64,000 nt of DNA. It comes from Candidatus Latescibacterota bacterium. Its GTDB lineage: Bacteria; Latescibacterota; UBA2968. The notes under the pieces are model-generated. The model searched no databases, was not told the origin of the DNA, and saw only the letters and a program-made list of their open reading frames with translations. Positions 28,404 to 54,254 of this stretch are shown one piece after another. Position 1 is the first letter of the stretch; each line of letters begins with the position of its first letter. The stretch is taken from contig OZ241986.1 in the NCBI GenBank assembly GCA_965204375.1, forward strand, positions 1,056,001 through 1,120,000. The letters are read 5' to 3'. The position numbers and the translations under genes were made by a program.

Positions 28404-29516
28404 ATGTTCATGAACAAGGTTAAATTTTATGTTATCTCCTTATGCTTTCACATCTTCCTTTTTCTTCTGATCGGAGCTTTCACACTCCGCGATCGCGAGA
28501 TTCACCAGGTGCCTGTAATTTGGGAACTTGCTGATCATGAAAAAGCAAAACCGATTCCTTCATTGGACATAGCTGCTGGTCCAGTACCAAAAGTGGAGGC
28601 CATATCTTCGGAACCCCAAAGCGCATCCTCGCCCCAAAAAACCAATTCTACTGACGGGCTTCGTAAATTGAACGTGACTTCTGATCCAGTAGTAAGAGCC
28701 GAAGCAATATCCTCGAAAGAAAAAAACACATTTGTCAAAAAAGCCGATTCTGCTGAGGTAGATACTGTTCATACTTTGCAGCAAGAGTTTCCCAAATCTA
28801 TTATGTTTGCAAAACGGCCAAATATGAAAAAAATCCTGGGGCTGGATAGACGATTAAAAAATTATTTTTTACAGGATGCAACGCCTCCCAAAATGAGCAC
28901 GGAAAGCGTGATAGCACAGCGGTTGTCTGCAATAAAAATAAAATACCAACTCCACCTGGACAATCCCCACCCGGACAATCGCAGTTGGAGATACCGCATT
29001 TTAGGTGCAAGTACGGAAGTAGCGGCATTTTATGCGGCTAAGGCCGCAGATAAACCCGTAGCGATGGTCGCTGTTGCGACATACTCATTGACTGTGGGAT
29101 CTATTGGAGAAAGTATGCGGGCAATGGGCAAAGCACTGTGGCGACGTGCTAAAACACCTCGCGGTCTGTACTTAGATGATCGAGAAATCGACATTATGGA
29201 ACAGGTTTGGATGCATGAAAAGGTCTCGGTACGCGACCTTTATCTGGCGCTTTCATCCGAGCGGACGGTTAAAACGCTTCAGAAGAAACTCAAGGATCTC
29301 GTTGATCGCGGTCTTCTGGTGTATAGAGGCAAAGGACACAAGGCAATGTACAGCGCACAAGTTGATCCTGATCAGGTAATGAATACCATGATTGCCAAAC
29401 TCAGCTTCGAAGATGTGAAAGCAAAAGCCAGAATTTTTCGATTGGCCGAAATTCGGGCTGATGGTCTTCAACAGATAGACAAATTGAGTTTCCCAGATTT
29501 TCATCTGAAAAATTAG
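28404..29516 (+). CDS. Membrane-anchored protein with C-terminal BlaI/MecI/CopY-like winged-helix domain
   Basis: N-terminal TM helix with SLCFH; C-terminal EIDIMEQVW...VSVRDLY...TLQKKLKDLVDRGLL...YSA. Confidence 0.7.
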   Translation: MFMNKVKFYVISLCFHIFLFLLIGAFTLRDREIHQVPVIWELADHEKAKPIPSLDIAAGPVPKVEAISSEPQSASSPQKTNSTDGLRKLNVTSDPVVRAEAISSKEKNTFVKKADSAEVDTVHTLQQEFPKSIMFAKRPNMKKILGLDRRLKNYFLQDATPPKMSTESVIAQRLSAIKIKYQLHLDNPHPDNRSWRYRILGASTEVAAFYAAKAADKPVAMVAVATYSLTVGSIGESMRAMGKALWRRAKTPRGLYLDDREIDIMEQVWMHEKVSVRDLYLALSSERTVKTLQKKLKDLVDRGLLVYRGKGHKAMYSAQVDPDQVMNTMIAKLSFEDVKAKARIFRLAEIRADGLQQIDKLSFPDFHLKN

Positions 29517-29529
29517 GTGATGATGGAGT

Positions 29530-30163
29530 ATGCAATACCGTCTTATGATAATCTTGATTTTGTCCTTTTGGCCCTCCAGAAATGATTGTCAGGAAATCTA
29601 TACTGGATTTGGGTTTGGGTTTGGTCCTTCATTTCCAGTGATAAACCAAAGATCCTTGCGGTCCTTTAGATATATTAGACAACTGTCATACCTCTTTAAA
29701 TCTCGTCAAAAATCAGAAGGGACCTGTGGTAAACAGTGAGTTTTTTGTTGGATACGAACCATTTGAGTTGACTTTGCACAGCTCTTTTTTTCGCTTGTCT
29801 CAAAGAGAGGTACAGAATACTCAAGAATATCGCATTTTTGATTCTGGCGGTTGGTTAAATTCATATCTCATTGAATTAAGGTACAAAGTTTTAGCAAGGC
29901 TGTTCAGACCATATCTAAACATCGGTATAGGGGCCTTTCATTTTCGTCCTGAAGATGATCAGGATGCGTTCCCAAAGCTGCATTTTGGTGGGGTATTTGG
30001 GTTGGGCAGTGAATTTGCCTATAAAAAAACAGAAGTCTATTTTTTTAGTGAAATTCGTTTTCAATATTTACGTTTTAGAGGGATACGAGAAGATGTTTCC
30101 GAAAAGATAACAGGCACATTGGACTTTATTGCGGGATGTAGATTTTGGATAGCCTCTCAGTAA
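29530..30163 (+). pseudogene. Frameshifted outer-membrane beta-barrel protein (OmpA/OmpW-like)
   Basis: Signal peptide + GFGFGFGPSFPV in one frame; second frame open from 29645 with amphipathic strands (PYLNIGIG, GGVFGLGSEF, FIAGCRF). Confidence 0.6.
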
Positions 30164-30170
30164 CTTACAA

Positions 30171-30222
30171 TCCCTTCGTGTATCTTCGTGTACCTTAGTG
30201 GATTTTACATCTCACTTCACTT
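30171..30222 (-). repeat. Dispersed ~50 bp intergenic repeat, copy 1
   Basis: Reverse complement AAGTGAAGTGAGATGTAAAATCCACTAAGGTACACGAAGATACACGAAGGGA closely matches 61507-61558. Confidence 0.8.
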
Positions 30223-30231
30223 CGTACCTTT

Positions 30232-31122
30232 TCAAAAAATATCCAACGCCGCTGCTTCGATTTCTTTCCGCAATGCTTTCTCTTCTTCTTTGTCGAGCGG
30301 ACGTGTAGGCTTGACGGGGTCGCCACACTCGATTCCCTGCCAGCGCAATACGGCGCGTACGCTGCCGTGTCCACTGTATTTTTGACAAATCCGAATCAGT
30401 TCATTCACGTCTGCTTGCAATGTGCGTGCCGTGTCCAAATCGCGCTTGTTCACCGCTTCGTAAATGCCCACAAAATGCGCTGTCATCACGTTGTAAAATG
30501 TGCCGATTCCCCCCTGGGCCCCTACCGCAATGCCCGATAGGGCCACTTCGTCATGTCCGTTAAAAATATGCGGTTTATGCGGTCCATTGAGTATGCGTTC
30601 CATTAAGAACAGGTTGAAATTTGTGAATTTAATGCCCACCACGCCATCGAGTGCGAGCATCTGGTTGATTTGTTCAAACGAATACTCCTGATGCGTGACC
30701 ACGGGGATGTAATACACAAAGACCGGCAAGTTTGTCGCTGAACTCAGCGCGCTGTAATACGCCAATATGTCGTCAAAACGATATCCCTGGACATAAGGCG
30801 GCAAACTCGAAATGCCATCGGCTCCTGCATCTGCGGCGTGTTTGGCGAGTTCAACCGCATCGCGCTCAGATGGGGCACCTACATGTACTACTACTCGTCC
30901 ACGTCCTTTTGATGCTTTGACGGCAATCTCTGTGGCCAATTTGCGTTCGGCCATTGTCATCAAATAGCCTTCGCCCGTATTGCCTGCCACATACACGCCA
31001 TGTGATCCCTGTTCGTAAATACGCGCTATGAGTTTTTCAAAGGCCGAGGTGCTGAATGCACCTGTCCCGTCCCTGGGGCTGACCAGTGCGGGATACATGC
31101 CATTAAAACCGTCGAGCATCAC
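30232..31122 (-). CDS. DapA/NanA family class I aldolase (N-acetylneuraminate lyase-like)
   Basis: GNTGE, HVGA, PPY, YYIP, Schiff-base Lys in GIKFT, GGIGTFYN. Confidence 0.85.
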   Translation of the reverse strand: MMLDGFNGMYPALVSPRDGTGAFSTSAFEKLIARIYEQGSHGVYVAGNTGEGYLMTMAERKLATEIAVKASKGRGRVVVHVGAPSERDAVELAKHAADAGADGISSLPPYVQGYRFDDILAYYSALSSATNLPVFVYYIPVVTHQEYSFEQINQMLALDGVVGIKFTNFNLFLMERILNGPHKPHIFNGHDEVALSGIAVGAQGGIGTFYNVMTAHFVGIYEAVNKRDLDTARTLQADVNELIRICQKYSGHGSVRAVLRWQGIECGDPVKPTRPLDKEEEKALRKEIEAAALDIF

Positions 31123-32126
31123 AGGGCGCCTCCTGTCTTTTCGTAAAGGGCGCGAGATAGTGATTCGATTTGTGTGCGTTCAACCAGTGTCTCTACGAGA
31201 TGTTGCGGCAAACCCGATGTTCCGTGATACAAACCGCTCAGGGTACCGGCAATGGCTGCAAATGTATCTACATCTCCACCCGTGAGCAGGGCGCGTTCAA
31301 CTGTGGGGATAAATTCTCCTTCTGAGCGCAAAAATGCCTCCAAAGCCACGACAATTGTGGCCTGGGCTTCGCTTGGAATGGCATTTTCTCGTACTGCTTC
31401 GGGCATTTTTACCATGGCTGACCACGCATCTTCCTCGTTCATTGTCAGCAATGTCCCCACCTGTGCGATCAACTCGCCTGTGGATTCGCAAATCGGTCTG
31501 GCCGACCACTCGGCTACGTCCAGCACCTCATTTCCGTCTAGCGGGCGATGTGTTACCAGATGCCCTACCACATGGGCCATTGCGACTGCAGGCGCAACTG
31601 CGCGTGGGTCCTGGTGCGTTACATGGCTCGCTGCAATTGCATCGTCCAGGATATTTTCACCGGTTGCCCAGTGCCACAAGCCCACTGGCGCGATTTTCAT
31701 GACCGCCCCATTGGAGGGGTGGTCTTTCGATGCGGCTTCGGACCACGCCAGACCCTGATCGAGGCGTTCCAGGGTTTCCCGAAAGGCCCTGCCATACATT
31801 TGCAGAAGTCCCTCGCGCCACATCGCCAAAAACCGATTGCTCAGGTCTTCGGGATCGACCTTTTCACACGCTATAATTGACTCAACCAGGACGAGGGTTT
31901 GCTGGGTATCGTCTGTATATTCTCCAGCCGGCCTAGTCAACACGCCTTCCCGATTGACTCGCCCTCGATAGTGGTCTGTCAATCCCTCTACCGCTTTGAT
32001 CCGATCCCGGTCCCATCCCTCGCAAAAACAGCCCAGGGAATCGCCTATTGCGCCGCCCAGTAGCGCGCCTACAAACATATCTTCGACTTCGATATCTTCT
32101 ATATCGTCTTCCCAATAATCAGCCAT
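31119..32126 (-). CDS. ADP-ribosylglycohydrolase family protein
   Basis: GAIGDSLG, YTDDT, NGAVM, TH, GGDVDT..AIAG. Confidence 0.92.
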   Translation of the reverse strand: MADYWEDDIEDIEVEDMFVGALLGGAIGDSLGCFCEGWDRDRIKAVEGLTDHYRGRVNREGVLTRPAGEYTDDTQQTLVLVESIIACEKVDPEDLSNRFLAMWREGLLQMYGRAFRETLERLDQGLAWSEAASKDHPSNGAVMKIAPVGLWHWATGENILDDAIAASHVTHQDPRAVAPAVAMAHVVGHLVTHRPLDGNEVLDVAEWSARPICESTGELIAQVGTLLTMNEEDAWSAMVKMPEAVRENAIPSEAQATIVVALEAFLRSEGEFIPTVERALLTGGDVDTFAAIAGTLSGLYHGTSGLPQHLVETLVERTQIESLSRALYEKTGGAL

Positions 32127-32174
32127 AATTCATCCTCAAGTTTAATCGGTGAAAAAATATCGGAGCAAGAGCCT

Positions 32175-33173
32175 CTATCGCGTATCTACGATATTGCGAA
32201 ATGCCCGAATGTGATCGGGCGTTGTTCCGCAACATCCGCCTATCAAGAATCCACCGGCGTCCAATAAGTCTTCGACGTGTTGTGCCATGTCTTCTGGTCC
32301 TTGCGAATACGACGCCTGTTTGGTGACTTTGTCCAGGGTGGGTAAGCCCGCATTGGGATAGGCCATCAAACGCTTGTTTTCAATGCCGCGATCCACAAGC
32401 GCTTTTTGCATCTGCACTGTGCCCTCAATTGCATAGGGCATGCCCGTGTGATCTGTATTGCGCGTTTCTGCGCCGCAGTTCAGGCCCAGGAGTTGTACGT
32501 CATTGAGCAGATTATCGCCATTGGAAAATTCGCCACTTGCCAAAATGTCCAGCACATCGCCGGGCGAAAAGCCCCAGTCGGTTCGGTAAATCAATTCGCC
32601 TGTTTTGCGATCTTTTGTGAATTTATACGTCATATTCACGGCGATGGGCAAGCCCGTCTGCCGCGCAATGTCAACGGCGATTGCCGCTTCTTTGGCGGAA
32701 AATTGCGTTTCTATAACAAAAAAATCGACGCCACCTTTGACCATGGCAGAGATCACGCGTGCGTGGGCTGATCGCACATCTGCATTGGGAATGCCAAAAA
32801 CCGTATCGCCAGCATCGGCTTCGATAGCACCGGGGGAGGGACCGATGGAGCCACCTACATAAACATCTTTCCCGCTTTCTTCAACGGCTTGCCGCGCGTG
32901 TTGGACAGCTAATTTTGTCAATTGCTCGGCATCATCTTCATCGGCGTCAGCCATCTCGAGATGCAGGGGGGATACCACAAATGTGTTCGTGCCGATGGCG
33001 TTTGCACCCGCATTGATATATGCGCGATGCACTGCCACAACCTCGTCGGGATGCGATAGATTGGCGATGGAACTGTTTGCCAGATTCACCCCGTGTGCAA
33101 ATAATTGAGACCCAAACCCGCCGTCATACACCATTGGCTGGTCATCTGCGAGGCGTTCTGCAAAAGGCTTCAT
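32175..33173 (-). CDS. Stand-alone homocysteine S-methyltransferase domain (MetH N-terminal-like)
   Basis: DGGFGS, HRAYINAGA, TNTF, GSIGP, Zn ligands GLNC and GGCCGTTPDHI, YPNAGLP. Confidence 0.9.
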   Translation of the reverse strand: MKPFAERLADDQPMVYDGGFGSQLFAHGVNLANSSIANLSHPDEVVAVHRAYINAGANAIGTNTFVVSPLHLEMADADEDDAEQLTKLAVQHARQAVEESGKDVYVGGSIGPSPGAIEADAGDTVFGIPNADVRSAHARVISAMVKGGVDFFVIETQFSAKEAAIAVDIARQTGLPIAVNMTYKFTKDRKTGELIYRTDWGFSPGDVLDILASGEFSNGDNLLNDVQLLGLNCGAETRNTDHTGMPYAIEGTVQMQKALVDRGIENKRLMAYPNAGLPTLDKVTKQASYSQGPEDMAQHVEDLLDAGGFLIGGCCGTTPDHIRAFRNIVDTR

Positions 33174-35098
33174 ACCGTCATCCTTTTAAACTGACACCCT
33201 TCGACAAATACGTCAAAGAAGTCTGGCTTTGTCTCCAGTTCCACATGTTCGATTCGCTGCACCAGGCGTTCTAATTCATCGCGTCGTTTCCGAGAAAGGA
33301 GGGTGGTTCTCGCGCCCAATATCGCGGCATTTCCCACTTTTTCAATGCGCTCTTGCGGCACGGGTGCGAGAAAACCGATGTCAATCGCATTTTGCACATT
33401 TACGTAATTGGCAAAACCACCGGATAGATAAAGCCGATGGATCTGGTCGGGGGCAATGCCAAATTCGCGCATGACGAGTAACTGTCCACAATAATTTGCG
33501 GCCTTGGCCTGAGCCAGATTGCTCGCATCTTCGCGCGATAGCGCAATGCCGTGTTCGGGCACCACCATCATTTCATATTGCTTGCGGTCGGCAAATACGC
33601 CCTTTTCCGTCATCATATCATGCCGCCGAAGCTCGGCCAGCAAATCGATTAGCCCAGAGCCGCACAACCCCTGGGGCGCGCCGTTGCCAATTACGCGATA
33701 ATTGAACTGACCATTTTTCCATACCATCGATTCAATCGCCCCATCTTGCCCGGGCATGCCACAGGCGATACCGCCGCCTTCAAATGCCGGTCCCGCCGGA
33801 CAAGAGGCTGCTACCAACCGGTCTCGGTTGCCCACTACGACCTCGGTATTGGTGCCCACATCGACAAGCATAAATATATCGTCTTGATTACCCATTTCTA
33901 CGGCCAGCATGTCCGCTGCGACATCGCCGCCCACATGGCTTGCAATAAGGGGCATGCCATATACCCGCGCTTTGGGATTTGCCCGAATGCCCAATCGCCG
34001 GCTACTTTCGTAAAGGGCGGTTGTTTTTCGTTCTCCAGCCAGATATTCGTGTTCTATTTGAGATTTATAGGGCTTTTGTCCAATGCTCTGCACATCGAGC
34101 CTGAAGAACATATCCCGCATGGTGGCATTGCCTGCGACGACAATTTCGTAAATTTCTTGTCGCTCAAAATCCAATTTTTCACATAGTACGAGAATTTCGT
34201 GGTTGATAGCATTTACCAGTGCCTTCCACAGCTCATTTGGATATTCGCCATCATAGGAAATGCGATACATGATGTCGCTACCGCCAAAACGCTGGGGATT
34301 TTCATAAGATGCAATCGCAATACTCTCGCCAGATTCCAGATCTACGAGATCCATCACAATTGTCGTGGTGCCCACATCAATTGCCAGTCCGTAGATGTGG
34401 CTCCGAAACCGATCGATGTCTTCTCCGTTGTAGAATACCCGGTCTCCACGGCGCGTTACCACGGGGTCGAGATCAATTTCTTTTTGCTGGCTCAAGGTCA
34501 AAATTTGAGGTTCGCGGCGCAGGGGCACAAATTCGACTTCTGCATCTAAATCTACGACTTCGGCCTGACAGGCCAATCGGTAATTGTCTTTTAAGAAGGC
34601 TTCCGCTTCGGTTTTGGGGCACAGGCTCTCTTCTCCCTTTGTAATTTCTACCACGCATTCATGGCATATCCCCGATCGAAAACACGACGTTGGAACCTGA
34701 ACGGCCAGATCGTCGGCATAATCAAATATCGTTTTTCGTCCTTCGAGTTGTTGCACTTGCCCCATGTGTGTAATTGTGCCCGTTCCCTTTTTTCGGCGAC
34801 GGTTTTTTTGTTTTTTGAGCGCGGTCTTCATCTCACGATAGGCATCTGGCTCTGTTTCCCAGGCCGTGCGATAGTCGAGGTTATCGTTGCTGGCACATTG
34901 AAAAAGCGCCCGGTTGGGCGCTGGTTTTCGCTGGAATTTACATCCAAATTTGGCCGTGCACTCGTTGTCCTTGTTTTTGTAGGGACAGCGCATCTGCGCC
35001 TGTTCGTCGGCATGCTGGACAATATCTGAAAAAATTTCAGACATGCGATCCAGTCGCTTTTGATAGGCTTCCCGATCTATTTTTTCGGGTTTACGCAT
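33170..35098 (-). CDS. ASKHA-fold ATP-dependent corrinoid reductive activator (RACo/RamA-like) with 2Fe-2S domain
   Basis: CFRSGICHEC...RLACQ ferredoxin; DVGTTT, NPQ..GSD, DVGTNTE, AGPAFEG, GLCGSG, GNAA. Confidence 0.9.
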   Translation of the reverse strand: MRKPEKIDREAYQKRLDRMSEIFSDIVQHADEQAQMRCPYKNKDNECTAKFGCKFQRKPAPNRALFQCASNDNLDYRTAWETEPDAYREMKTALKKQKNRRRKKGTGTITHMGQVQQLEGRKTIFDYADDLAVQVPTSCFRSGICHECVVEITKGEESLCPKTEAEAFLKDNYRLACQAEVVDLDAEVEFVPLRREPQILTLSQQKEIDLDPVVTRRGDRVFYNGEDIDRFRSHIYGLAIDVGTTTIVMDLVDLESGESIAIASYENPQRFGGSDIMYRISYDGEYPNELWKALVNAINHEILVLCEKLDFERQEIYEIVVAGNATMRDMFFRLDVQSIGQKPYKSQIEHEYLAGERKTTALYESSRRLGIRANPKARVYGMPLIASHVGGDVAADMLAVEMGNQDDIFMLVDVGTNTEVVVGNRDRLVAASCPAGPAFEGGGIACGMPGQDGAIESMVWKNGQFNYRVIGNGAPQGLCGSGLIDLLAELRRHDMMTEKGVFADRKQYEMMVVPEHGIALSREDASNLAQAKAANYCGQLLVMREFGIAPDQIHRLYLSGGFANYVNVQNAIDIGFLAPVPQERIEKVGNAAILGARTTLLSRKRRDELERLVQRIEHVELETKPDFFDVFVEGCQFKRMTV

Positions 35099-35852
35099 TC
35101 TCTTCCTCCCACTCCTTCAACAATTGTACAGCCAGTTCCACGCAGTCCAGGGCATTTTCACCGTATCCATCCGCACCCATGTCGTCGGCAAATTCCTGTG
35201 TCACAGGGGCGCCGCCCACCATGATTTTTACATCGTCTCGCAGATCTTCGTCGATAAATGCCTCAATTGTCTTGCCCATGTTCGGCATTGTCGTGGTCAA
35301 CAGTGCGGACATACCCAGTAAATTGGCTTCATGTTCTTCCACGGCATCCATAAATTCGTCTTCGGATGTATCCACGCCGAGGTCGTGGACGACAAACCCG
35401 GCACCGCGCAACATCATGATACACAAATTTTTGCCAATATCGTGCAAATCGCCCTTCACCGTGCCCATAATGACAGTGCCTACCGGATCGACACCCGAGG
35501 CTGACAAAATGGGTTCAATATGCGCCATTCCCGCTTTCATCGCACGGGCACATGCGAGGACTTCGGGTACAAAAATAAAATTCTCTCTAAACTTAATCCC
35601 CACAATGCCCATGCCAGCGATCAATCCATCGTCCATAATTTTCAGCGCGCCCACACCTGCATTTAGGGCTTCGCGCGTTAATTGATCGACATTGTGGTGC
35701 GCGCCATCAATCAATGAGGCGGCAATTTCCTGCATCTCGGGGCTCGCATTTGAGAACAGATCGATATTGCGTTGGATCTCATCGGGGCGTTCTAAAAATT
35801 CCTCTATTTCCTCTTTGATAAATTCATTTTGAATATCGGATAATTCAGCCAT
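35091..35852 (-). CDS. Corrinoid (B12-binding) methyltransferase protein
   Basis: Cap domain (GM..VG..F..FVPEV), GDLHDIGKN (DxHxxG), SALLTTT, VGGAP. Confidence 0.93.
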   Translation of the reverse strand: MAELSDIQNEFIKEEIEEFLERPDEIQRNIDLFSNASPEMQEIAASLIDGAHHNVDQLTREALNAGVGALKIMDDGLIAGMGIVGIKFRENFIFVPEVLACARAMKAGMAHIEPILSASGVDPVGTVIMGTVKGDLHDIGKNLCIMMLRGAGFVVHDLGVDTSEDEFMDAVEEHEANLLGMSALLTTTMPNMGKTIEAFIDEDLRDDVKIMVGGAPVTQEFADDMGADGYGENALDCVELAVQLLKEWEEENA

Positions 35853-36894
35853 GAACTCTCTTTTCCTCCGCATGCCAATCCGCGATCGCTTTGGGGATTT
35901 CTTTCAGATTTTCGATGGATGTCTGCAAAGGAATCGCGCATTCAGGCCCGATCAGATTCACACCGGCGTCCAGGTTTTTGTACACTTCTTCTTTTACAGT
36001 TTCCGGATCTTTTGAAAATAGCGTTTCCGGGTTGTTGATGTTGCCGACCAGCGCGATCCGCTCCTTCATAATATCGATTGACTCATTCGGGTCGTTTTTG
36101 GAGTCGTAGTGGAATGCCGCCATGCCCGTTTGCGCGATGTATTCCATCCGATCAACGGTGCGCCCACATATATGTAAAATCAGTGGAATGGGTATGCGGT
36201 CGGCAAATTCAATGTGTAATTCGCGCAAATACCGGTCGTAATAATCGCCGCTGACCAGATCGCCCGTTGCGTGATCGGGCAGGGTCAAGGCGTCGGCACC
36301 CGCTTCAATTTGCGCCACGCCAAATTCGACGGTTACTTCTTTTAATTTGTCCAGAATTTGTCGCGTGTGATCCGGGTCGTCTAATGATAGGAGCAAAAAA
36401 TCCTCTACGCCAAAACAGTGATACGCCAGGGACCAGGGTCCCATTGTTTTGCCGATAATCGCCACTTCGTCGCCGTATTCTTTTCGCAATATGCCAATCG
36501 CGTCCAGTACGCATTTTGTATCGGGATGGGTCAATAAGTTAGACGGGATTTCAATATCATCTACCTTGTGCCAGATCGGTTCTTTCATTTTTACTGTGGG
36601 CCAGTTGTCTTTTTGCTCCCACTGGATTTTGCATCCCAGTGCCGACGATTCTTGAATAATCGTAAATACCGGCATAATTGTGTCAAACCCCAGTTCGGTA
36701 TAGCTCGTTGCCGCCAGGCGCGCCATGAGTTCTGGCTCGCGATTTGCCTGCGGAAATGGGGCATCTACGAGGTCCATTAATTCCACGGTTGCAACCGAAG
36801 TTGGATTGCACGTTGGGGTACGATCTACAGGTGCCCGATTGAGTGCGGCCAATACACGGTCGCGCGGTTTCATGGGTTTTGTCGTCTTGTGCAT
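35845..36894 (-). CDS. MtaA/CmuA family methyltransferase (UroD fold)
   Basis: ALGC, GPWSLA, LHICG (HxC Zn ligands), GNIN, PECAI (third ligand). Confidence 0.88.
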   Translation of the reverse strand: MHKTTKPMKPRDRVLAALNRAPVDRTPTCNPTSVATVELMDLVDAPFPQANREPELMARLAATSYTELGFDTIMPVFTIIQESSALGCKIQWEQKDNWPTVKMKEPIWHKVDDIEIPSNLLTHPDTKCVLDAIGILRKEYGDEVAIIGKTMGPWSLAYHCFGVEDFLLLSLDDPDHTRQILDKLKEVTVEFGVAQIEAGADALTLPDHATGDLVSGDYYDRYLRELHIEFADRIPIPLILHICGRTVDRMEYIAQTGMAAFHYDSKNDPNESIDIMKERIALVGNINNPETLFSKDPETVKEEVYKNLDAGVNLIGPECAIPLQTSIENLKEIPKAIADWHAEEKRVHG

Positions 36895-36934
36895 ATTGGA
36901 CTCCGAAAGGTGAGGCGTGAGAGGCTGAAAGCGT

Positions 36935-37564
36935 TTAATTTTGCGCGCTCGGGGCTGCGAGCACGCCCCGGCTGGCAGCCTGTTCCAATTCTCTCAAAAC
37001 CGATCGCACATTGGGGGCGCGTACGAGAAGGACACCTATGAGGGGATCGTGTGTCATGCCGCAATCAAAGCGCACCTGGTCTTCTTCTACTTGTTCCAAT
37101 TCGCCCAGCTTTGCAAGCCCGCCGGCCACCAATCGAATGCGCCGGTCTGCGCCTTTTTCATCGCTGTCAGCCGTGACTTTGTATGCGCCATTAGATTGGG
37201 GCGTTGCGGAAATGTGCAATCCCGATTTTTTGTCCAGGATGGTCAATGGTCGCATAGATACATCGTCATTCATGCCGAGTTTGCACGCTTCCAGGAATAG
37301 TCGTTTTACAGGGAGCAGATGTGTGGCTCCACACGGAAAGCGCAGCAATCCCTCGTTTGTGTCTTCCATGCCTCCCAGGACTCGCATCGCATGGTTCACG
37401 GAATCTATACGCGCTTGCGCCCCGTCTATCTGGCTGTATGTGTGAACGCGAAAAGTCGTGCCTTGTGCGTTTTCTTGCCGATATAGCCCTATTGTGATGT
37501 CGTGAAAATGGACATCCATTGGCACCAATTCTATTCGCCGACCGATATCTAATGTCTTTCCCAT
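36935..37564 (-). CDS. Hypothetical protein in corrinoid cluster
   Basis: AAGGA RBS; internal F.CG..H repeat (FPCGATH, FDCGMTH); no family recognised. Confidence 0.75.
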   Translation of the reverse strand: MGKTLDIGRRIELVPMDVHFHDITIGLYRQENAQGTTFRVHTYSQIDGAQARIDSVNHAMRVLGGMEDTNEGLLRFPCGATHLLPVKRLFLEACKLGMNDDVSMRPLTILDKKSGLHISATPQSNGAYKVTADSDEKGADRRIRLVAGGLAKLGELEQVEEDQVRFDCGMTHDPLIGVLLVRAPNVRSVLRELEQAASRGVLAAPSAQN

Positions 37565-37578
37565 GAGAATCCTTCCTC

Positions 37579-38442
37579 TTACCTATCAAGCACATATTGG
37601 CGCACGGCTTTGGCAAATCCATCGTTTTCAATGTGGTCGGTTTGTAAAATATTTTCCCCGGCCACTGCGCGATGGGTTGCTGCATCTGCATTGTACATCA
37701 ATACACCGGTTCCGGCTGCGCGCAACATGGGGAGATCATTATTGCCATCGCCCACAGCCATCACTTCATCGAGGCTGCTGCCAATGTGGTTGGCTATCGC
37801 TGTGAGTGCCGCGCCTTTGTTCACATCCGGGTGCATGATTTCGATGCGACCCGCCACGGCCCAGGCCATGTAAATTTGATCGCCAAATAGATTTTTTAAT
37901 TCATCAACTGTCTCATCTGCATGTCCGGGTTCGGGTAGGAGCATTATTTTGGGGGGCGCGGCCAATTCTTTCGCGCGTATTCGCTGCGCGAGATCGGCAT
38001 CGACTTCATAGACCATATTGGTCATTGTGGCTACCGCGCGGCTCATTTTTGTCATGCGGTCGGTGATATAAACTTCGCAGGGATCCTCGCTATTCATGTC
38101 GCAGCGACAATATACAAAATTCATGAGCCGGTCATCGGCATATTGGATCAGCGATAAGAATATGTCATCGGGCAAACGCTGTTCGTGCATGAGTTGGCGT
38201 GTGCCATTCTTTTTGGGTGCAAAAACCATTGCGCCATTATAACATCCGGCGTAGAGCGCGTCGGCCACGCTGGGATTGCGTACAAACGGAATTTGATTGC
38301 GTTCAAAATTGCGCCCACTCATCGACGCTACAGCTACACCGCGATCCAACAATTCGCAAATCGCCGCCATCGAAGCATCCGATGGGGTGTTGTTGTGATT
38401 TAAGATCGTTCCATCCAGGTCAAATGCCACAAGTCTGATCAC
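37579..38442 (-). CDS. Cof-type HAD hydrolase (subfamily IIB)
   Basis: DLDGT, SGR, NGA, NKG, GDGNNDLPM; GTG start after AGGAG. Confidence 0.9.
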   Translation of the reverse strand: MIRLVAFDLDGTILNHNNTPSDASMAAICELLDRGVAVASMSGRNFERNQIPFVRNPSVADALYAGCYNGAMVFAPKKNGTRQLMHEQRLPDDIFLSLIQYADDRLMNFVYCRCDMNSEDPCEVYITDRMTKMSRAVATMTNMVYEVDADLAQRIRAKELAAPPKIMLLPEPGHADETVDELKNLFGDQIYMAWAVAGRIEIMHPDVNKGAALTAIANHIGSSLDEVMAVGDGNNDLPMLRAAGTGVLMYNADAATHRAVAGENILQTDHIENDGFAKAVRQYVLDR

Positions 38443-38452
38443 TGCATCTCCT

Positions 38453-39490
38453 CTAATCAACCAGAGGCAACCGAACGGTTCCGCCTCGCTCTGCCGAGCG
38501 GTGAACCGCTTCGGTAAATTCCATATATCTCATGCCTTCGTAAAAGCTGGTATCGCCCTGAGGCCCACCCTTGATGGCATTGATAAAATCGGCTTCGACA
38601 GTCCATTCGGCGGCTTCATCTTCGGGGATGGGAATTTGTTGCGGTCGTCGATCACCCGTTTTTGCGCCGAGGATTTGCGTTCCCATGTCGTAGATCAATG
38701 TGCCGTCACTGCCATAAGCTTCAACGACGGATTTTCCGCCAAATTGCGCGACGCCCGAAAATAGAAATGCCGCACGCGCACCATTTTCCATTTTGCCTAT
38801 GATGTGTGCCATATCAGGTGTTTCAACTGGTCCATTGCCAGACCCATCGGGTAGGGGGCGCTCTCTGGTAAAAATTTCAGTTTCAGCCGTTATGGTTGAC
38901 ATGTAGCCAAATACGCGCGCTACGCGCTCGACGGTAATGCCCATTCCCAGGATATTCAGACCCGAATACCGGCCCATTTGTCGCCAGTGCAGTGGCTCTT
39001 CGATATCCCAATAGCGCCCGCCCAGGTCGCGGACATAGACGTGGAAAATATCGCCCAAATACCCTTCGTCTATGAGCCGCTTCAAGAAACGTCCACCTTT
39101 CCACGGGGGTGCTGGACAAATTTGGGTTACGAGGTTGGATTCTCGACTTCTGGCATACATCAATCGGGCTTCTCGCAAGTTCATCGCCATGCGCGCCTGT
39201 ACAAATGTGTGTTTGCCCGCGTCTAAGGATGCGAGGACGAATTCACAGTGTTTGTACGGCCATGTGCCGATCATTACGGCGTCGATGTCGTCCCGGTGTA
39301 ACAGGGCCTGTGGATCGGTCATAGCGTCGGCTGATAAGCCCTGCTCGGCTATGACCTTTTCACCGCTTTCTATACTGCGGTTGCATATTGCCACGATTTC
39401 GGCATCGTCAATTTTTGCCAGTCCCGGAAAATGTCGGTTCCGGAAAATACCACCCGCACCAATAATGCCAATGCGAATTTTATCTGCCAT
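38453..39490 (-). CDS. Gfo/Idh/MocA family oxidoreductase (paralog 1)
   Basis: IGIIGAGG, DIDAVMIGTWP..H, GKH.FVQARMA. Confidence 0.9.
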   Translation of the reverse strand: MADKIRIGIIGAGGIFRNRHFPGLAKIDDAEIVAICNRSIESGEKVIAEQGLSADAMTDPQALLHRDDIDAVMIGTWPYKHCEFVLASLDAGKHTFVQARMAMNLREARLMYARSRESNLVTQICPAPPWKGGRFLKRLIDEGYLGDIFHVYVRDLGGRYWDIEEPLHWRQMGRYSGLNILGMGITVERVARVFGYMSTITAETEIFTRERPLPDGSGNGPVETPDMAHIIGKMENGARAAFLFSGVAQFGGKSVVEAYGSDGTLIYDMGTQILGAKTGDRRPQQIPIPEDEAAEWTVEADFINAIKGGPQGDTSFYEGMRYMEFTEAVHRSAERGGTVRLPLVD

Positions 39491-39666
39491 TTTTTACCTC
39501 ACTGTGTTGTCGTTGTTCTTATCTCCTATAGCGCATAATGTTCAAGGGTTGCAGAAACTGCAGCGCAAAAGCAAATGTATCACAGTTTTTGTCAATTAGC
39601 AAACGAATCGGTCACGGCTATTTGGGAAAGTAGGGTTGTGGATGTCTGAGGCGCTATTCACACTTT

Positions 39667-39825
39667 TCATCTCACTTCACCAATATGATCCGCCAGCCAT
39701 TCGACAAATTCATCGCCAGAGACATACCCTGACGCAAGCCCTAAAATGACTTGTTCCTGATCATCCTCAGAGGCATCAATCTCATACCCATTCAGGACCA
39801 ACATTACTTCCATCGCTGCATTGCC
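39667..39825 (-). pseudogene. C-terminal remnant of death-on-curing (Doc/Fic) toxin
   Basis: Manual translation GNAAMEVMLVLNGYEIDASEDDQEQVILGLASGYVSGDEFVEWLADHIGEVR*; HPFxDGNKR motif and N-terminus absent. Confidence 0.7.
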
Positions 39826-39881
39826 TCATGTCGTGAATCTCCGCTTTTGACCTCCCTGGGTCAAACCACCACCGCGAACAA

Positions 39882-40796
39882 TCATTTGATGCGGCCGAAG
39901 TCTCTCAACGCTTTCAAGTTGTCGACCGTGAACCTGGCTTGCCATTCCCTCCTAACTGTGGGCCACGTCTCTGGATACTGATCTCCCCACGAGAAATTCG
40001 GGTACCAGGAGCCGTCCTCGCCCTGCTGCGCGATTTCGAAGTCCAGATTCATCTCTATTTCTTTTTCGAGCCCCGCGGCCAGAGGTGATTCTGGCGAAGA
40101 AACCAGCCAGAGGGGTTTGAGATTATAGCCGGTCCACTGCGCTGCATCCCGGGCGACACCATGCGCCGCCACCCGGGCCAGTTTCTTCCAGATCCGATCC
40201 CTATTTGGCAGCGCTTCGGTCTCTGCCAGTCGCATGGCACAGAGGATGTCGTTCATGTCCATGTCGTCGGGCAGGGAATCCAGGTGCTCCAGAACGGCTG
40301 CGGTTGATGTTTTCAGCAATTGCGGCGGTACGCCATCGCTGTAGTCGTGTAGATATCCGACGATCTCAGCGCGCGGGTTGACCAGAAACTGCCCAAAAGT
40401 CTCCGCGGTGTTCTCGTAATTCCACCAGGGGGCGTGGGGTGCCTCATCCACTTCGAGTGGAACGATTGGCCAAACCTGCCTGGACTCGTCGTATGTGGCG
40501 ACGAAATACGCGATTCCCTTTCGCACCAGCGCGTGGCCCGCGGATGCCCGAATTTCCCTGAGGATCTGGAAGGCTATGGTGGTCGCAATCGCAGACGAAG
40601 CCGGTGTCCTGATGTCGGGTTCCAGACTGTGGCCAAACCCACCGTCGTCGTTCTGGTAAGATGCCAGGGCGGCCAGAACGGCATCGGCGGATCCGGCTTC
40701 AAAGTGATATTCAAAACGCCTTTGGTCCAACGCACTCCCCTGATCCAGAACGAAGGTCTTTGCTTTCTGAAATGCCGCTTGTGTGAGTCTTTTCAT
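39882..40796 (-). CDS. Prenyltransferase/squalene oxidase repeat-like hypothetical protein
   Basis: YQNDDGGFGHSLEPD, HAPWW, QGEDGSW motifs; GGAGG RBS. Confidence 0.72.
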   Translation of the reverse strand: MKRLTQAAFQKAKTFVLDQGSALDQRRFEYHFEAGSADAVLAALASYQNDDGGFGHSLEPDIRTPASSAIATTIAFQILREIRASAGHALVRKGIAYFVATYDESRQVWPIVPLEVDEAPHAPWWNYENTAETFGQFLVNPRAEIVGYLHDYSDGVPPQLLKTSTAAVLEHLDSLPDDMDMNDILCAMRLAETEALPNRDRIWKKLARVAAHGVARDAAQWTGYNLKPLWLVSSPESPLAAGLEKEIEMNLDFEIAQQGEDGSWYPNFSWGDQYPETWPTVRREWQARFTVDNLKALRDFGRIK

Positions 40797-40908
40797 TCTT
40801 GCCCTCCTCTCCTAAAGCGGGGAGAGATGGCCACTCCCCGTTGGGCTAACCAGTTCAAAGAATCCCCACCAAATAAACGATCCAGTGGGGATTGAAAATA
40901 AGGTCAGA

Positions 40909-41094
40909 TCACACCATTCGCTGCACTTCAATTACAGACGCTTGAGTAATGCGAAATGCTTTCATGAAGTCCCGGAAGCTGAGATCGAGTTGATGCTTGC
41001 TCAGGAGCCGAAACGTTTCCTCAAGCGCGCAGTTCCAGGCTTTGTCAAAATTACATAGGGTGTCGTCCAATTCGAAGAAGATCGCGCGAATCAT
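40909..41094 (-). pseudogene. Truncated HAD hydrolase N-terminal fragment
   Basis: MIRAIFFELDDTL (motif I with D to E change), only 61 aa. Confidence 0.6.
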
Positions 41095-41290
41095 GGGTCA
41101 AAATGCTCATGTTGGTTAACGTGTAAGGTTGCCAAATGGGGATGTGGTCTCGCCAGGCAAGATAATCGGTAGGGTTGTCGTCAGAAAATGAAATTATCCA
41201 CGCCCATTTTGGGATAGATGATGTTGGGGTAGGTGCGGCAACCTTTTTTTACGTCTGGTAGCCCTTTAGCGGCGAAGCCTTTAAAGGGAG

Positions 41291-41331
41291 ACCCTAAAAG
41301 GCGCACGATCAACCGTGTCTTTTTTTAGGGT
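41291..41331. terminator. Hairpin downstream of DUF402 gene
   Basis: ACCCTAAAAGGCGCACG...CGTGTCTTTTTTTAGGGT inverted repeat. Confidence 0.5.
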
Positions 41332-41336
41332 GTGGC

Positions 41337-41978
41337 TCAATCATACATAGATAAATCATTCCAATCCGCTTCCAATCTCGGGCGAGTCAGCGACGCATCG
41401 GGGCGCCACTGCTCCCAACCTTCTGAATACAGCCCGCCATTGTGCTCAATTTCTTCAACTGCGAGCTTCCCTTCTTCTCTGACAGCTTTGCCCTGTGCAG
41501 GTGTCATGCGCCCGAGTTCCACAGCAAGGTCGAGTTCATCTTGGTCCTTCCATCTCCAGTTGCGATCAGGTCCAATAACAATGTCCAATTGATGATCCGT
41601 AAAATCAAAGCCCAGATGCGTGCGCCGTAATTTACTTTGAAGGTTGACATACCAACCTTCAAACACGCGATCTGCCGACCATCGCACCCAGGTTGCACGA
41701 CAATTGTGCGGTCGAACGACGATCAGAAGTTCTGCCCATTGCCAAGTCGAATCCACCAATGCCCAGGATCCCTTGACCCAACGACGTGGTGTGCCCGGAA
41801 TATGGTTCAGCAGTACCGGCCTCTTCGTTGGTGTTCCCAACGGGAGCCAAAGAACAACTTGTGCATCTGAATCTTCAATAACGGTGACGGGCTTTACGTC
41901 GACAACTTGACCGTGTTCGTCAAGCTCGCGATAGAGAATGGATTGGCCGTAGCAAAACTCAGACGGTATATCTTTCAT
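41337..41978 (-). CDS. DUF402 domain protein
   Basis: GWYVNL, DHQLDIVI.PD..W.WKD.DEL motif; start uncertain. Confidence 0.8.
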   Translation of the reverse strand: MKDIPSEFCYGQSILYRELDEHGQVVDVKPVTVIEDSDAQVVLWLPLGTPTKRPVLLNHIPGTPRRWVKGSWALVDSTWQWAELLIVVRPHNCRATWVRWSADRVFEGWYVNLQSKLRRTHLGFDFTDHQLDIVIGPDRNWRWKDQDELDLAVELGRMTPAQGKAVREEGKLAVEEIEHNGGLYSEGWEQWRPDASLTRPRLEADWNDLSMYD

Positions 41979-42481: not shown

Positions 42482-42800
42482 TCATACAAATAGACTCTGC
42501 GAATAACGGTATGCGATGCAGCTGGTACCCCACTCTTTATGAGCCACATCCATGAGCGTATATGCTGTGGTCACAATGGTACCATCTTCAAAACATACGG
42601 TACTGGGATACCCGCAGTCCGAATGGTAGGCCGTGTCGCTGATGATGTATTCGCGATTTATATCAAAGGTGTTTCCTCCATCGTGACTCACAACAGCGCG
42701 AACTCCGAAGGGATATGCGCGGTATCCATATGTAACGCGTGCCCGTAGCAATAACGGGGACTTCTTCCATGTGATCGACCAAAGAGACGACCTCAAACAT
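42482..42800 (-). pseudogene. BNR/sialidase family gene with large internal deletion
   Basis: N-terminus MFEVVSLVDH overlapping upstream stop, joined out of frame to TYGYR, Asp-box SHDGGNTF, DCGYPST. Confidence 0.7.
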
Positions 42801-43794
42801 CGTCTTTCTCCTGCGCCTGGTTCGGTGCCTCTTCCCATGGTGCACGCAACGTCGGCCTCTCGGTCAGGAACTCCAGTCCCGCGCGCAACGCCCCATCCGC
42901 GTTGAACCACGCGTGGAAGCCCTGCCCATCGATACCGTTGCCGTCATAGCGGTCGCGACGGGTAGAAATCGCCTTGCCTTCTCGCATGCCCCAGCCCATC
43001 CACCCGTGGCCCGATTCTTCCATCATCTGGATGGTCCAGCGGGCACAATCTGCGCGCTTTGCATCGTCAAGGCAGCCGGGAATGGTCTCGTTGGAGAGCA
43101 TTGGCTTTTTATGACGCTGCTGAACTGCGGCACATACTGCCAACATCTCGCGCTGTTGCTCGGGCGTGCGCCCGTAGGGGTGACAGCACAGCACGTCGCA
43201 GAGTGGCGCGAGTCGGTCCATCTGCTCCTCAATTTGAAGCACGCCAATGGTGATTGGCTGCTGCGCTCCGCACGCGCGCACCGTCTCAGCTACCCGCTCC
43301 AGCCACTCGATTTCTTTGGCGTTGGAATCGGCATCCAGACGCGGGTATTGGGGTTCATTGCAGAGGTCCCAGACGAGGACGCGCTCGTCATTGGCAAGGG
43401 GCGCGACCAGATCGCGAACATAGTCCAGCTTCGGACTCCAATTTCGGTGCAGATCCTCGATATAGGTCCCGCCGTAGTCGTAGTCGCGGCTGTGCCACCG
43501 GTTGAACAGGCATGGCATGGTCCGCATGCCAAGTTCATCAATGGCCGCCACAGCATCCATGAACGACGCGTGGACAGCGTCCGGGTCTGCCATCCATGCT
43601 GTGAACTCGATCCACAGGCGGATGCAATTGGCGTGCGTCTGGTTTGCAAGTGCGACTTCTTCGCGGAATCGGTCCGGGCTATAGTCCCACCAGGCCTGCT
43701 CGATGCGGGCACCCCAGGAGGGTACGATATTGAATCCGCGGAGCCAGGCGTAGTCCTGGTAGTGATGGAGCTTCACATTTGCTGGTTCTGCCAT
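42793..43794 (-). CDS. Glycoside hydrolase, GH5/clan GH-A-like
   Basis: RGFN, NCIRLW, WDLCNEP acid/base, HPY, SNE nucleophile region. Confidence 0.75.
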   Translation of the reverse strand: MAEPANVKLHHYQDYAWLRGFNIVPSWGARIEQAWWDYSPDRFREEVALANQTHANCIRLWIEFTAWMADPDAVHASFMDAVAAIDELGMRTMPCLFNRWHSRDYDYGGTYIEDLHRNWSPKLDYVRDLVAPLANDERVLVWDLCNEPQYPRLDADSNAKEIEWLERVAETVRACGAQQPITIGVLQIEEQMDRLAPLCDVLCCHPYGRTPEQQREMLAVCAAVQQRHKKPMLSNETIPGCLDDAKRADCARWTIQMMEESGHGWMGWGMREGKAISTRRDRYDGNGIDGQGFHAWFNADGALRAGLEFLTERPTLRAPWEEAPNQAQEKDDV

Positions 43795-43814
43795 TGTCTC
43801 TATCCTTAAAGCCC

Positions 43815-45125: not shown

Positions 45126-45153
45126 GGTTAATCATGTCCTTTTCATCGCCATC

Positions 45154-46614: not shown

Positions 46615-46669
46615 CGAAGTCACCTCGGTGCGAGTTGGCAGCATCTTAAGCCTTTGGAACATATCACAG

Positions 46670-47524
46670 CTAATCGTTATATGCCACAGCTTCGGGGAAG
46701 GTCTCGTGAAGGTGGTCGAGAACCATATCGATCTTACACCTGCACAAAGTGCTGGGATAGGGCATCTCGCCGGTCCGCCGAAAAGATGCCCCGTTCTTTG
46801 CGTGAAAATCACCCCGCCGGTCCATGAACTGCCCCCAACGTCCCATCGTGTATCGCATCTCTGTCCTTTTTTCAGCGCTCTGAATCCAGGCTTCGGGAAA
46901 CAGCATTTGAAACCGGGGTGCCGAATTCAACCAGCTGCCGCATTGAACCACTTTTACTTCCGGTCGACGTACTTGCGAATCTCTGAGCAGCCTGATTAGC
47001 GATGCCGCAAACTGCATGTGCATATCGCTGAGGGGAGATTTTGGCTGATAGACATTGGCAATATGAAGGCTCAACGCATTCTCGTGTTTGTAGTCGTAAT
47101 TCCAGCATTCGTGTGAACGATCGCCAGGCCCGGGCTGTTCATTACCCAACTTGCGAATGCGCGCTTCCATAAGTGGCCAGAGGATCGCAAGTCCTCTGGT
47201 CTCCACGGATTCACTCTCATTACTATACTTGTCGAAGATTTCTCCCAACTTTTCTACAATGACGTTCCATTCGAGATCTTCGTCTCCCGCTGCCGGATGG
47301 TGGTTGCCGTCGTAGAGTGAGGTGTTCCGGTACAGATTGACTCGCACGTTAACGGTATCTTCCAGATCTCCAGGGTTTTCCTGTAGCCGTTTGTTCGCGT
47401 ACCAAAGGCTCAACCGGGTGAATTCCCGAACATAATGCACGCGAATCGGATCCAGATCGGACATTGATTCTACCCCCGTTGTTCGTATTGCGTTAATCTT
47501 TTCCTCTGTCGGATTTTGTGCCAA
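46670..47524 (-). CDS. Hypothetical protein
   Basis: Long ORF in operon; CGSWLN, WGQF..R.G motifs; no family recognised. Confidence 0.7.
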   Translation of the reverse strand: MAQNPTEEKINAIRTTGVESMSDLDPIRVHYVREFTRLSLWYANKRLQENPGDLEDTVNVRVNLYRNTSLYDGNHHPAAGDEDLEWNVIVEKLGEIFDKYSNESESVETRGLAILWPLMEARIRKLGNEQPGPGDRSHECWNYDYKHENALSLHIANVYQPKSPLSDMHMQFAASLIRLLRDSQVRRPEVKVVQCGSWLNSAPRFQMLFPEAWIQSAEKRTEMRYTMGRWGQFMDRRGDFHAKNGASFRRTGEMPYPSTLCRCKIDMVLDHLHETFPEAVAYND

Positions 47525-50959: not shown

Positions 50960-51016
50960 GGTATTCTCCTTGCTGCGTCCAGTTCAGCGAGTCGTTGGGT
51001 TGCCATAAACTCAGTC

Positions 51017-52378: not shown

Positions 52379-52391
52379 TGGTCACCTCTTC

Positions 52392-53183: not shown

Positions 53184-53191
53184 ACGGCCTC

Positions 53192-54241: not shown

Positions 54242-54254
54242 TACAACCTCCATT

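Follow-up and report, generated by a model that had tools for sequence, protein, structure and literature searches.

A corrinoid methyl-transfer module of Latescibacterota with an uncharacterised protein partner: a candidate folate-independent relay to homocysteine

Where would a corrinoid protein that serves a homocysteine methyltransferase obtain its methyl groups if no folate-binding partner is encoded beside it? This question is raised by five genes on the minus strand of a 64,000-nucleotide stretch (the window) of contig OZ241986.1 from a Candidatus Latescibacterota bacterium (assembly GCA_965204375.1). The cluster (32175-37564) encodes, in the order of reading, a 209-aa protein of an uncharacterised family (unk209; 36935-37564), a 349-aa zinc methyltransferase of the MtaA/CmuA family with the URO-D fold (MtaA-like; 35845-36894), a 260-aa corrinoid (B12) carrier protein with cap and Rossmann domains (35091-35873), a 642-aa ATP-dependent reductive activase of the RACo/RamA type (RACo; 33170-35098), and a 332-aa stand-alone homocysteine S-methyltransferase of the MetH-module-1/MtgE type (HcyMT; 32175-33173). 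The spacing is operon-like, with a gap of 40 nt between the unk209 and MtaA-like genes and overlaps of 29, 8, and 4 nt at the following junctions. An earlier note on this DNA had listed an MtaA/CmuA-type methyltransferase, a DxHxxG corrinoid protein, a RACo activator, and a homocysteine methyltransferase preceded by an unknown protein, an inventory borne out by the coordinates of the open reading frames (ORFs), by Pfam and NCBIfam matches, and by motifs. It had also described the cluster as free of pterin-binding and AdoMet-reactivation domains, and indeed neither PF00809 nor PF02965 was found among the 61 ORFs called in the window. We see about an even chance that the five genes form an auxiliary, folate-independent relay that would carry a donor's methyl group through cobalt to homocysteine, giving methionine.

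The MtaA-like protein matched PF01208 (E 1.5e-65) and passed two family cut-offs, those of TIGR01463 mtaA_cmuA (257.1 bits versus 235.4) and NF004889 (268.1 versus 244), and it scored below the equivalog cut-offs for MtaA (NF040654, 244.5 versus 400) and MtbA (NF041608, 203.9 versus 600). Its best match in the Protein Data Bank (PDB) was 4ay7, the MtaA of M. mazei (E 6e-51). The residues H241-x-C243 and C319 align with the same motifs of 4ay7 and were invariant in 30/30 orthologues, over which the mean column identity was 84%. In MtaA-like proteins the H-x-C...C residues are the zinc ligands (PMC10418091, cited here and below from the available parts of that paper). A homologue search of 1.84 billion representatives returned 2344 homologues, and the nearest full-length non-orthologues were unnamed "MtaA/CmuA family" proteins of 38-51% identity from Limnochordia, Bacillota, and Chloroflexota. 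In a quick IQ-TREE search, for which the only support measure was the SH-like approximate likelihood ratio test (SH-aLRT), the window protein and 8 orthologues formed a clade (SH-aLRT 100) nested in a 32-row clade (support 99) of unnamed bacterial proteins, apart from the rows that pass the MtaA (3) and MtbA (1) equivalog cut-offs. The phylogeny proposed by the earlier note was thereby obtained in part: the window protein is separate from the MtaA and MtbA equivalogs, and the tree held no MtsA or CmuA. A search for CmuA in a plasmid collection, with the window MtaA-like protein as the query, gave only HemE-like matches of at most 27% identity.

The remaining three enzymes of known families carry the features expected from their domain matches. 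The corrinoid protein matched PF02607 (E 6.5e-19) and PF02310 (E 1.2e-27), its translation contains the DxHxxG motif as GDLHDIG, and its TIGR02370 score of 187 bits is under the cut-off of 215. RACo has the RACo/RamA architecture, with a 2Fe-2S ferredoxin domain, a RACo middle domain, and an ASKHA domain in that order (PF00111, PF17651, and PF14574; Fer2, E 7e-08; RACo_middle, E 7.7e-42; RACo_C_ter, E 2e-70), and scores below the model cut-offs of AcsV (313 versus 800) and RamA (119 versus 500); by its domain make-up, it is a putative ATP-dependent reductive activase of the carrier. HcyMT matched PF02574 (E 2.5e-52) and scored 129 bits on the BHMT model and 119 bits on the MmuM model, both under cut-off. 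It is 65% identical to the orthologue that stands beside a pterin-binding subunit in loci L026 and L039, and 27% identical to the N-terminal module of the MetH encoded in its own genome, with the zinc motifs "NCG" and "GGCCGTTP" aligned. Zinc ligands are thus intact in both methyltransferases, as the earlier note had claimed for the homocysteine methyltransferase. The first ~110 aa of RACo (34769-35098, minus strand) form a Cys-rich N-terminal extension with zero Pfam match and zero similarity to PF13769; many metagenome loci have a counterpart, either as a separate high-scoring segment pair or as a ~100-aa ORF ahead of RACo (e.g., L090:12514-12816).

The 209-aa protein had zero match in Pfam or NCBIfam, and a comparison of 30 members of its family with Pfam gave nothing meaningful even at E<=5. 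A total of 986 homologues (E<=1e-3) of 114-366 aa were found, named only "hypothetical protein," with identities of 55-60% across records named Latescibacteria, Poribacteria, and Gemmatimonadota. The protein is an internal duplication with an F-x-C-x3-H motif in each half, and the residues C78, H82, C168, and H172 are invariant, which suggests a Cys2His2 metal site. An AlphaFold (AF2) model was obtained with a predicted local distance difference test (pLDDT) score of 86 and a predicted template modeling (pTM) score of 0.84; a Foldseek comparison of this fold with the PDB gave no match at E<=1e-3, and the ESM Atlas gave nothing usable. The best Foldseek match, RNA polymerase subunit L/Rpo11 (E 0.1, TM 0.21-0.41), was counted as none. 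A search for fusions among longer members gave one 509-aa protein without a Pfam domain. Long frames in genomes G110 and G136 run from stop to stop, several of them overlapping in the same DNA, and show no evident fusion.

Structure prediction links this protein to the MtaA-like enzyme. Three predictions of the MtaA-like/unk209 complex with matched alignments gave ipSAE interface scores of 0.01, 0.90, and 0.83 (median, 0.83), compared with 0.00 for the best of 3 controls; in calibration, the mark applied to such predictions was reached by 58/80 solved complexes and 2/110 mismatched pairs. Contact agreement among the runs was at least 19%, and the pLDDT of the partner was at least 82. The predicted interface on the MtaA-like protein is made up of the invariant segments 37-44, 94-100, 288-297, and 319-331, beside the zinc ligand C319. 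From these models, unk209 is predicted to bind the MtaA-like enzyme.

Gene order in metagenomes points the same way. Among 80 metagenome loci found with an unk209 alignment (not dereplicated; L053/L056, L072/L073, and L090/L091 look identical), the MtaA-like gene is directly downstream of unk209 in 69 of the 71 that have at least 400 bp downstream, and the corrinoid protein and RACo then follow in 27 of the 30 with at least 4.5 kb. Median identities to the window proteins were 80% for MtaA-like, 79% for the corrinoid protein, 64% for RACo, 59% for HcyMT, and 54% for unk209. For the corrinoid protein, a median of 79% also holds against the carriers of clusters with a pterin-binding subunit. The combination of unk209, MtaA-like, corrinoid protein, and RACo is a widespread module. 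The "unknown protein" placed ahead of the cluster by the earlier note is present; given this adjacency and the predicted binding, it is the constant partner of the MtaA-like enzyme and no bystander.

The genes that complete the module vary. Fuller clusters in L039, L043, L050, L070, L105, and L107 consist of a minus-strand GntR gene followed by unk209, MtaA-like, corrinoid protein, RACo, an MTHFR-like gene (PF02219 plus PF12225), a pterin methyltransferase, HcyMT, and a PF13769 gene; their content is therefore that of a split MetH with its own MTHFR plus an MtaA/unk209 arm. Other arrangements include HcyMT-PF13769 upstream of unk209 and the pterin subunit without HcyMT. Among 19 wide loci, 11 contain HcyMT and 7 the pterin subunit, with 3 holding the two together. 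Three loci are limited to the unk209/MtaA-like pair, and the pair stands without a corrinoid protein nearby in L049, L055, and L072. Folate independence, which the earlier note had taken as a property of the system, is consequently not a module-wide trait, since sister lineages carry the pterin methyltransferase and the MTHFR-like gene.

Several further features were seen in these loci. Most loci outside the family of the window have a small PF13769 ("Virulence_fact") ORF after HcyMT or after the pterin subunit (e.g., L025:11002-11286, L090:16535-16795). Several loci also contain a second, divergent PF02574 paralogue, located between HAD on one side and GntR/unk209 on the other, which shares 30-53% identity with the L024 copy or with the HcyMT of the window (L024:3423-4286, L090:8008-8910, L075:4102-4935). 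Mobile-looking insertions place a DNA methylase (PF01555) between unk209 and the MtaA-like gene (L021:4724-5839, L022:4659-6017) and a HigB-like toxin ORF between the corrinoid protein and RACo (L078:5276-5557).

A search of genomes with HcyMT found 26 loci, comprising 21 close relatives (65-98% identity) and five distant loci, L029-L033, that were kept outside the comparison. All five genes occur in the same order in 18 of the 21 related loci, and 2 more end at a contig edge; the arrangement is therefore not due to chance. A pterin-binding gene lies directly upstream of HcyMT in 1/21 related loci (L026, 65% identity). The HcyMT homologues of the distant loci are 25-31% identical and come from Spirochaetales, Oscillospiraceae, Clostridia, and Alloprevotella.

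The genome of the window is a single 6.34-Mb contig (completeness, 96%; contamination, 5.5%), which allowed the search for metH and pterin-binding domains that the earlier note had proposed. Only two proteins matched PF00809, namely a full-length MetH (1242 aa; NF007024, 1978 bits versus a cut-off of 1497) and FolP (TIGR01496, 305 bits versus 163). There is one MetF, a single RACo, and a single stand-alone corrinoid protein besides MetH, and the URO-D members are the MtaA-like protein and HemE only. MttB (PF06253), DUF1638 (PF07796), MtaB, and PF13769 were not found in this 96% complete genome. Because no other docking methyltransferase is recognisable, the carrier can shuttle only between the MtaA-like enzyme and HcyMT. 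The proposal of a folate-independent methionine synthase thus stands insofar as both cluster and genome are without a stand-alone pterin partner, but the complete MetH and MetF mean that the module is not the methionine synthase of the cell, and it is therefore an auxiliary or salvage route. Two MetE-like "core" proteins are also encoded, one of 501 aa (L005:964-2469, minus strand; C1, ~3.858 Mb) and one of 349 aa (L006:1447-2496, plus strand; ~0.364 Mb). They scored 157 and 140 bits on archaeal-type methionine synthase models with a cut-off of 406, and judging from these matches they may be additional methionine synthases that do without folate, resembling those in the available part of PMC7857596.

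The distribution of the folate arm was followed in a phylum sample of 151 genomes, which are related and not independent. Within it, unk209 is present in 28/29 genomes of the window's family (f1), in 19/19 and 57/64 of two sister families (f2 and f3), and in almost none of the remaining families. The stand-alone pterin subunit of the L039 type (E<=1e-30) is found in 0/29, 19/19, and 46/64 of these three families, respectively. The MetH activation domain PF02965 occurs in 27/29 genomes of f1 and 3/19 of f2, and in genus g16 it occurs in 0/22, with the pterin subunit there in 21/22. There is a clear tendency for the folate arm of the module to be absent where canonical MetH is present, with the window's family as the extreme case. 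Judged by gene content, the window represents a derived, folate-arm-less state of the module. Within the genus that lacks the pterin subunit, each of the five genes is intact and under purifying selection (dN/dS, 0.04-0.15; dS, up to ~1.4), and the folate-arm-less system is kept as a unit. The corrinoid protein, RACo, and HcyMT are kept though MtaA-like/unk209 is their sole partner, and the simplest reading is therefore that the selected function is methyl exchange between the MtaA substrate and homocysteine/methionine.

The operon is probably expressed. Contigs from RNA libraries aligned to 29500-40000 in four metatranscriptome libraries from four studies (sponge, coral, and marine), at 90-99% identity and covering 24-29 of 30 bins. 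These contigs span the junctions ADPRH/HcyMT, HcyMT/RACo, RACo/Corr, Corr/MtaA-like, MtaA-like/unk209, and unk209/HAD, in which ADPRH and HAD are the immediate neighbours of the five genes and Corr is the corrinoid protein.

For such a relay, we infer the reactions, the methyl donor, and the flow direction as follows. The MtaA-like enzyme, complexed with unk209, would move a methyl group from a small donor onto the Co(I) of the carrier to give CH3-Co(III), and HcyMT would pass it from there to homocysteine, yielding methionine and Co(I). RACo, with ATP and an electron, would restore accidentally oxidised Co(II) to Co(I). In sister lineages the same carrier would also be fed by the pterin methyltransferase and the MTHFR-like enzyme, so that a split MetH there has one more input. 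The folate-dependent job would fall to canonical MetH in the family of the window, and the module would be left for methyl salvage or assimilation. This input model fits all of the variants seen, whether with HcyMT only, with pterin methyltransferase and MTHFR only, or with both.

By analogy with characterised relatives, a methylated thiol or selenol is the probable donor. Given the His-Cys-Cys zinc site, the likeliest candidates are a methyl thioether or a methyl selenide, such as methanethiol/dimethyl sulfide, methylmercaptopropionate, or a similar compound. In MtaA-like proteins such a site has been argued to mark S-/Se-methyl substrates, and the methylthiol system of MtsA, cited in the same paper, is a precedent (PMC10418091). 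A further MtaA-family enzyme, MtpA, is specific for methylmercaptopropionate (10.1101/548461, cited here and below from the available part). Methyl halides, for which CmuA and CdmB are precedents (PMC13222342; CdmB is without zinc), and O-methyl sugars, in view of the operon neighbours, are also possible donors. A more specific version, which we put forward only tentatively and think rather doubtful, would have MtaA-like/unk209 act as a two-subunit metalloenzyme that demethylates an abundant marine methyl-S/methyl-Se compound and delivers the methyl group via one B12 carrier to homocysteine, with folate as an alternative acceptor wherever a folate arm exists.

A number of observations weigh against the relay. 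One of the three complex runs gave an ipSAE of 0.01. A thioether is a thermodynamically unfavourable methyl donor to Co(I), and for MtpA this transfer was observed only at high substrate concentration (10.1101/548461). The module is near-universal in one class, and the MtaA-like protein is extraordinarily conserved, with a median identity of 80% across loci where that of unk209 is 54%; together, class-wide presence and extreme conservation resemble housekeeping more than the use of a niche substrate. The MtaA-like tree was built without MtsA, MtpA, CmuA, Mlp, OdmB, or CdmB references and hence is silent on the donor class. No S-adenosylmethionine (SAM) or B12 riboswitch that would tie the operon to methionine status was found with Rfam, nor any other riboswitch or regulatory RNA at gathering thresholds in the window and four loci, where only two tRNAs (L053) were detected. 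Finally, the RNA-library contigs attest to presence only, as DNA carry-over is possible, and they show neither a single transcript nor a level of expression.

The five genes belong to a run of nine tightly packed minus-strand genes (30232-39490) with gaps or overlaps of at most 48 nt. Upstream are genes for a GFO/IDH/MocA oxidoreductase (GFO; 38453-39490) and a Cof-type HAD phosphatase (HAD; 37579-38460), which overlap by 8 nt, with a gap of 14 nt between HAD and unk209. Downstream are those for an ADP-ribosylglycohydrolase-family protein (ADPRH; 31119-32126) and a DHDPS/NanA-family aldolase (30232-31122); all four are on the minus strand and were assigned with Pfam and NCBIfam. The functional tie of these neighbours to the module is uncertain. 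The genus shares GFO and HAD beside the module, as do L024, L036, L075, and L090, and a GFO match of >100 aligned residues is found in 7/80 metagenome loci (60/80 have at least 1 kb upstream of unk209). ADPRH and DHDPS are conserved among close relatives only (at least 76% identity) and are absent in L020 and L023-L025. A promoter and terminator scan of 29500-41500 gave counts equal to those of shuffled sequences (13 versus 13.4 and 17 versus 13.8) and is uninformative on the limits of the operon. The ORFs flanking it, at 39882-40796 (minus strand, 304 aa) and 29726-30163 (plus strand, 145 aa), have zero Pfam/NCBIfam match. Further upstream, at 42793-55250, the window encodes GH5-like, PQQ-propeller, sulfatase, DUF3604, DegT aminotransferase, two beta-lactamase-family, GFO, and xylose-isomerase-like TIM proteins, and PQQ-propeller and beta-lactamase2 genes also lie directly upstream of the lone unk209/MtaA-like pairs in L049, L055, and L072.

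Other roles for the module have to be weighed against the relay. The unk209/MtaA-like pair is extremely conserved and single-copy across a class, many lineages carry it together with split MetH genes, and the predicted position of unk209 is next to C319 on the barrel face that bears the active site, which is presumably also where the corrinoid protein would dock. These features would suit an accessory or housekeeping role in which the pair, without metabolic flux, dealkylates or conditions the cobamide or gates access to the carrier, the window cluster then being what is left of a split MetH, with some role apart from net production of methionine. We regard this as unlikely: without a donor arm the corrinoid protein, RACo, and HcyMT would be idle, yet all are under purifying selection, and the pair stands without a nearby corrinoid protein in L049, L055, and L072. 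The known chemistry of the family raises the question of direction, since all characterised MtaA/MtbA enzymes run from methyl-Co to a thiol, MtpA is far faster toward the thiol (10.1101/548461), and the assay of ClMlp2 was a methylcobalamin:selenide/sulfide methyl transfer (PMC10418091). The MtaA-like/unk209 pair could accordingly be an exit that methylates a thiol, selenol, or sulfide with the methyl group of the carrier, and clusters with MTHFR and the pterin subunit would make sense with a branched output, to homocysteine or X-SH. The methyl source would be CH3-tetrahydrofolate via the pterin subunit in sister lineages and methionine, by reversal of HcyMT, in the window's family, where the pterin subunit is found in 0/29 genomes and methionine would thus be needed as the donor. 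We know of no PF02574 enzyme reported to run from methionine to the carrier, which weighs against this direction, and SAM is the usual methyl donor for thiols in cells; a reverse flow seems to us quite improbable.

The setting of the window lends itself to another donor. Its nine packed genes, the recurrence of GFO and HAD (with or without AP_endonuc_2) upstream of the module in the divergent loci L024, L036, L075, and L090, and the richness of the window in sulfatase and glycan-degradation genes would agree with an O-methylated sugar or cyclitol handled by the operon neighbours, the module being an oxygen-independent sugar O-demethylase that feeds homocysteine. We give this little credence, as the His-Cys-Cys zinc site is the S/Se-type set and the MtaA-like proteins treated in the available text of PMC10418091 share only ~17% identity with known O-demethylases of the UroD fold, and as GFO accompanies so few of the metagenome loci and ADPRH and DHDPS only the close relatives. 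For MtaA-like proteins in clusters without a folate methyltransferase, Kountz and Balskus have raised the possibility of a cryptic folate enzyme (PMC10418091). Applied here, the MtaA-like protein would be an unrecognised methyl-folate/methyl-pterin:corrinoid methyltransferase and the system an ordinary folate-dependent split MetH, which we consider very unlikely: such an enzyme would be redundant beside the dedicated pterin subunit of the sister-lineage clusters, and a thiolate-type zinc site would seem needless for folate chemistry. The sub-cut-off scores of HcyMT on the BHMT and MmuM models raise the converse possibility, that it is an independent MmuM/BHMT-like enzyme with S-methylmethionine, SAM, or betaine as its donor and a mere neighbour of an unrelated corrinoid system. 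The chance of this appears slim, given the 4-nt overlap of its gene with that of RACo, the location of its orthologues with corrinoid genes and, in other loci, immediately next to the pterin subunit, and the separate, different PF02574 paralogue in L024 and L090.

If the relay from donor to homocysteine is correct, a large uncultured group of bacteria, marine and host-associated, can make methionine from a methylated compound other than methyl-folate. Its entry enzyme, an MtaA-like protein with a never-described partner, would be without a characterised counterpart, and an unannotated protein family of about a thousand or more members would gain a function. With this system, the recently recognised "one carrier, several methyltransferases" logic of split MetH/MtgBCDE would be extended by a novel input arm, and the system could indicate a missing enzyme of marine methyl-sulfur or methyl-selenium cycling. 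Should the methyl-S/Se reading hold as well, it would imply a hitherto unrecognised and widespread route by which Latescibacterota, Poribacteria, Gemmatimonadota, and further marine and host-associated bacteria with aerobic-type genes turn over methyl-sulfur compounds and form methionine without folate. The lineage of the window would be the cleanest natural test case, a "folate-arm knockout" in which only the MtaA-like/unk209 arm and the homocysteine arm remain. A description of an MtaA-like plus 209-aa-partner arm on a split methionine synthase was not found in a literature search that excluded supplements and subscription journals.

Compared with canonical MetH, in which homocysteine, pterin, B12, and AdoMet-activation domains are fused, the window has separate genes and is without PF00809 and PF02965. 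The MtaA-like enzyme resembles MtsA and MtpA/MtpC in being an MtaA-family zinc enzyme of the kind that exchanges methyl groups between a thioether and a corrinoid (10.1101/548461; MtsA as cited in PMC10418091), but in the methanogen methylthiol systems, as described there, the acceptor is coenzyme M, whereas the acceptor module of the window is HcyMT. The window protein is neither an MtaA nor an MtbA equivalog and belongs to a separate bacterial clade. The cmu clusters contain genes for a pterin methyltransferase and MTHFR, and the sister clusters are like them in this respect. With CmuAB and CdmBCA the module would share a URO-D-fold methyltransferase that loads a corrinoid from a small donor; according to the available part of PMC13222342, however, CmuA is a fused methyltransferase-corrinoid protein, CdmB is without zinc, and both systems deliver to folate and not to homocysteine.

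Closer parallels are found in two groups of bacterial systems. The type 1 mlp clusters likewise combine a His-Cys-Cys MtaA-like protein, a corrinoid protein, and a bacterial RACo/Ram activase without a folate methyltransferase, and a methyl-S/Se salvage that possibly ends in methionine has been proposed for them (PMC10418091). As far as they are described in the available text, these clusters need at least Mlp2 and Mlp3, i.e., two or three URO-D paralogues, and occur in obligate anaerobes only (PMC10418091). In the window only one MtaA-like gene is present, a PF02574 enzyme stands where a second Mlp would be, and unk209 is added, in a genome with HemE and MetH. The split MetH/MtgBCDE systems of Phaeobacter inhibens and Ruegeria pomeroyi (PMC5764234, PMC12478193; both cited from their available parts) share with the module a separate corrinoid protein, a PF02574 subunit, and a RamA/RACo activase. 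In Phaeobacter, the separate homocysteine subunit follows a shared-carrier logic (PMC5764234), and in Ruegeria it was shown genetically that a single corrinoid protein, MtgC, is shared by a substrate methyltransferase, a pterin methyltransferase, and MtgE, the homocysteine subunit (PMC12478193). Several methyltransferases thus act on one carrier, so that a non-folate donor can feed methionine, and this is the likeness to the module proposed here. The genes are clustered in the window and lie at several loci in Phaeobacter and Ruegeria, and the genome of the window lacks the MtgBCDE features of a stand-alone pterin subunit, MttB, and DUF1638. In MtgBCDE, as described in these sources, the input is the MttB-family MtgB acting on glycine betaine, with the pterin subunit MtgD and DUF1638 required; in the window, the corresponding place is taken by the MtaA-like enzyme together with unk209.

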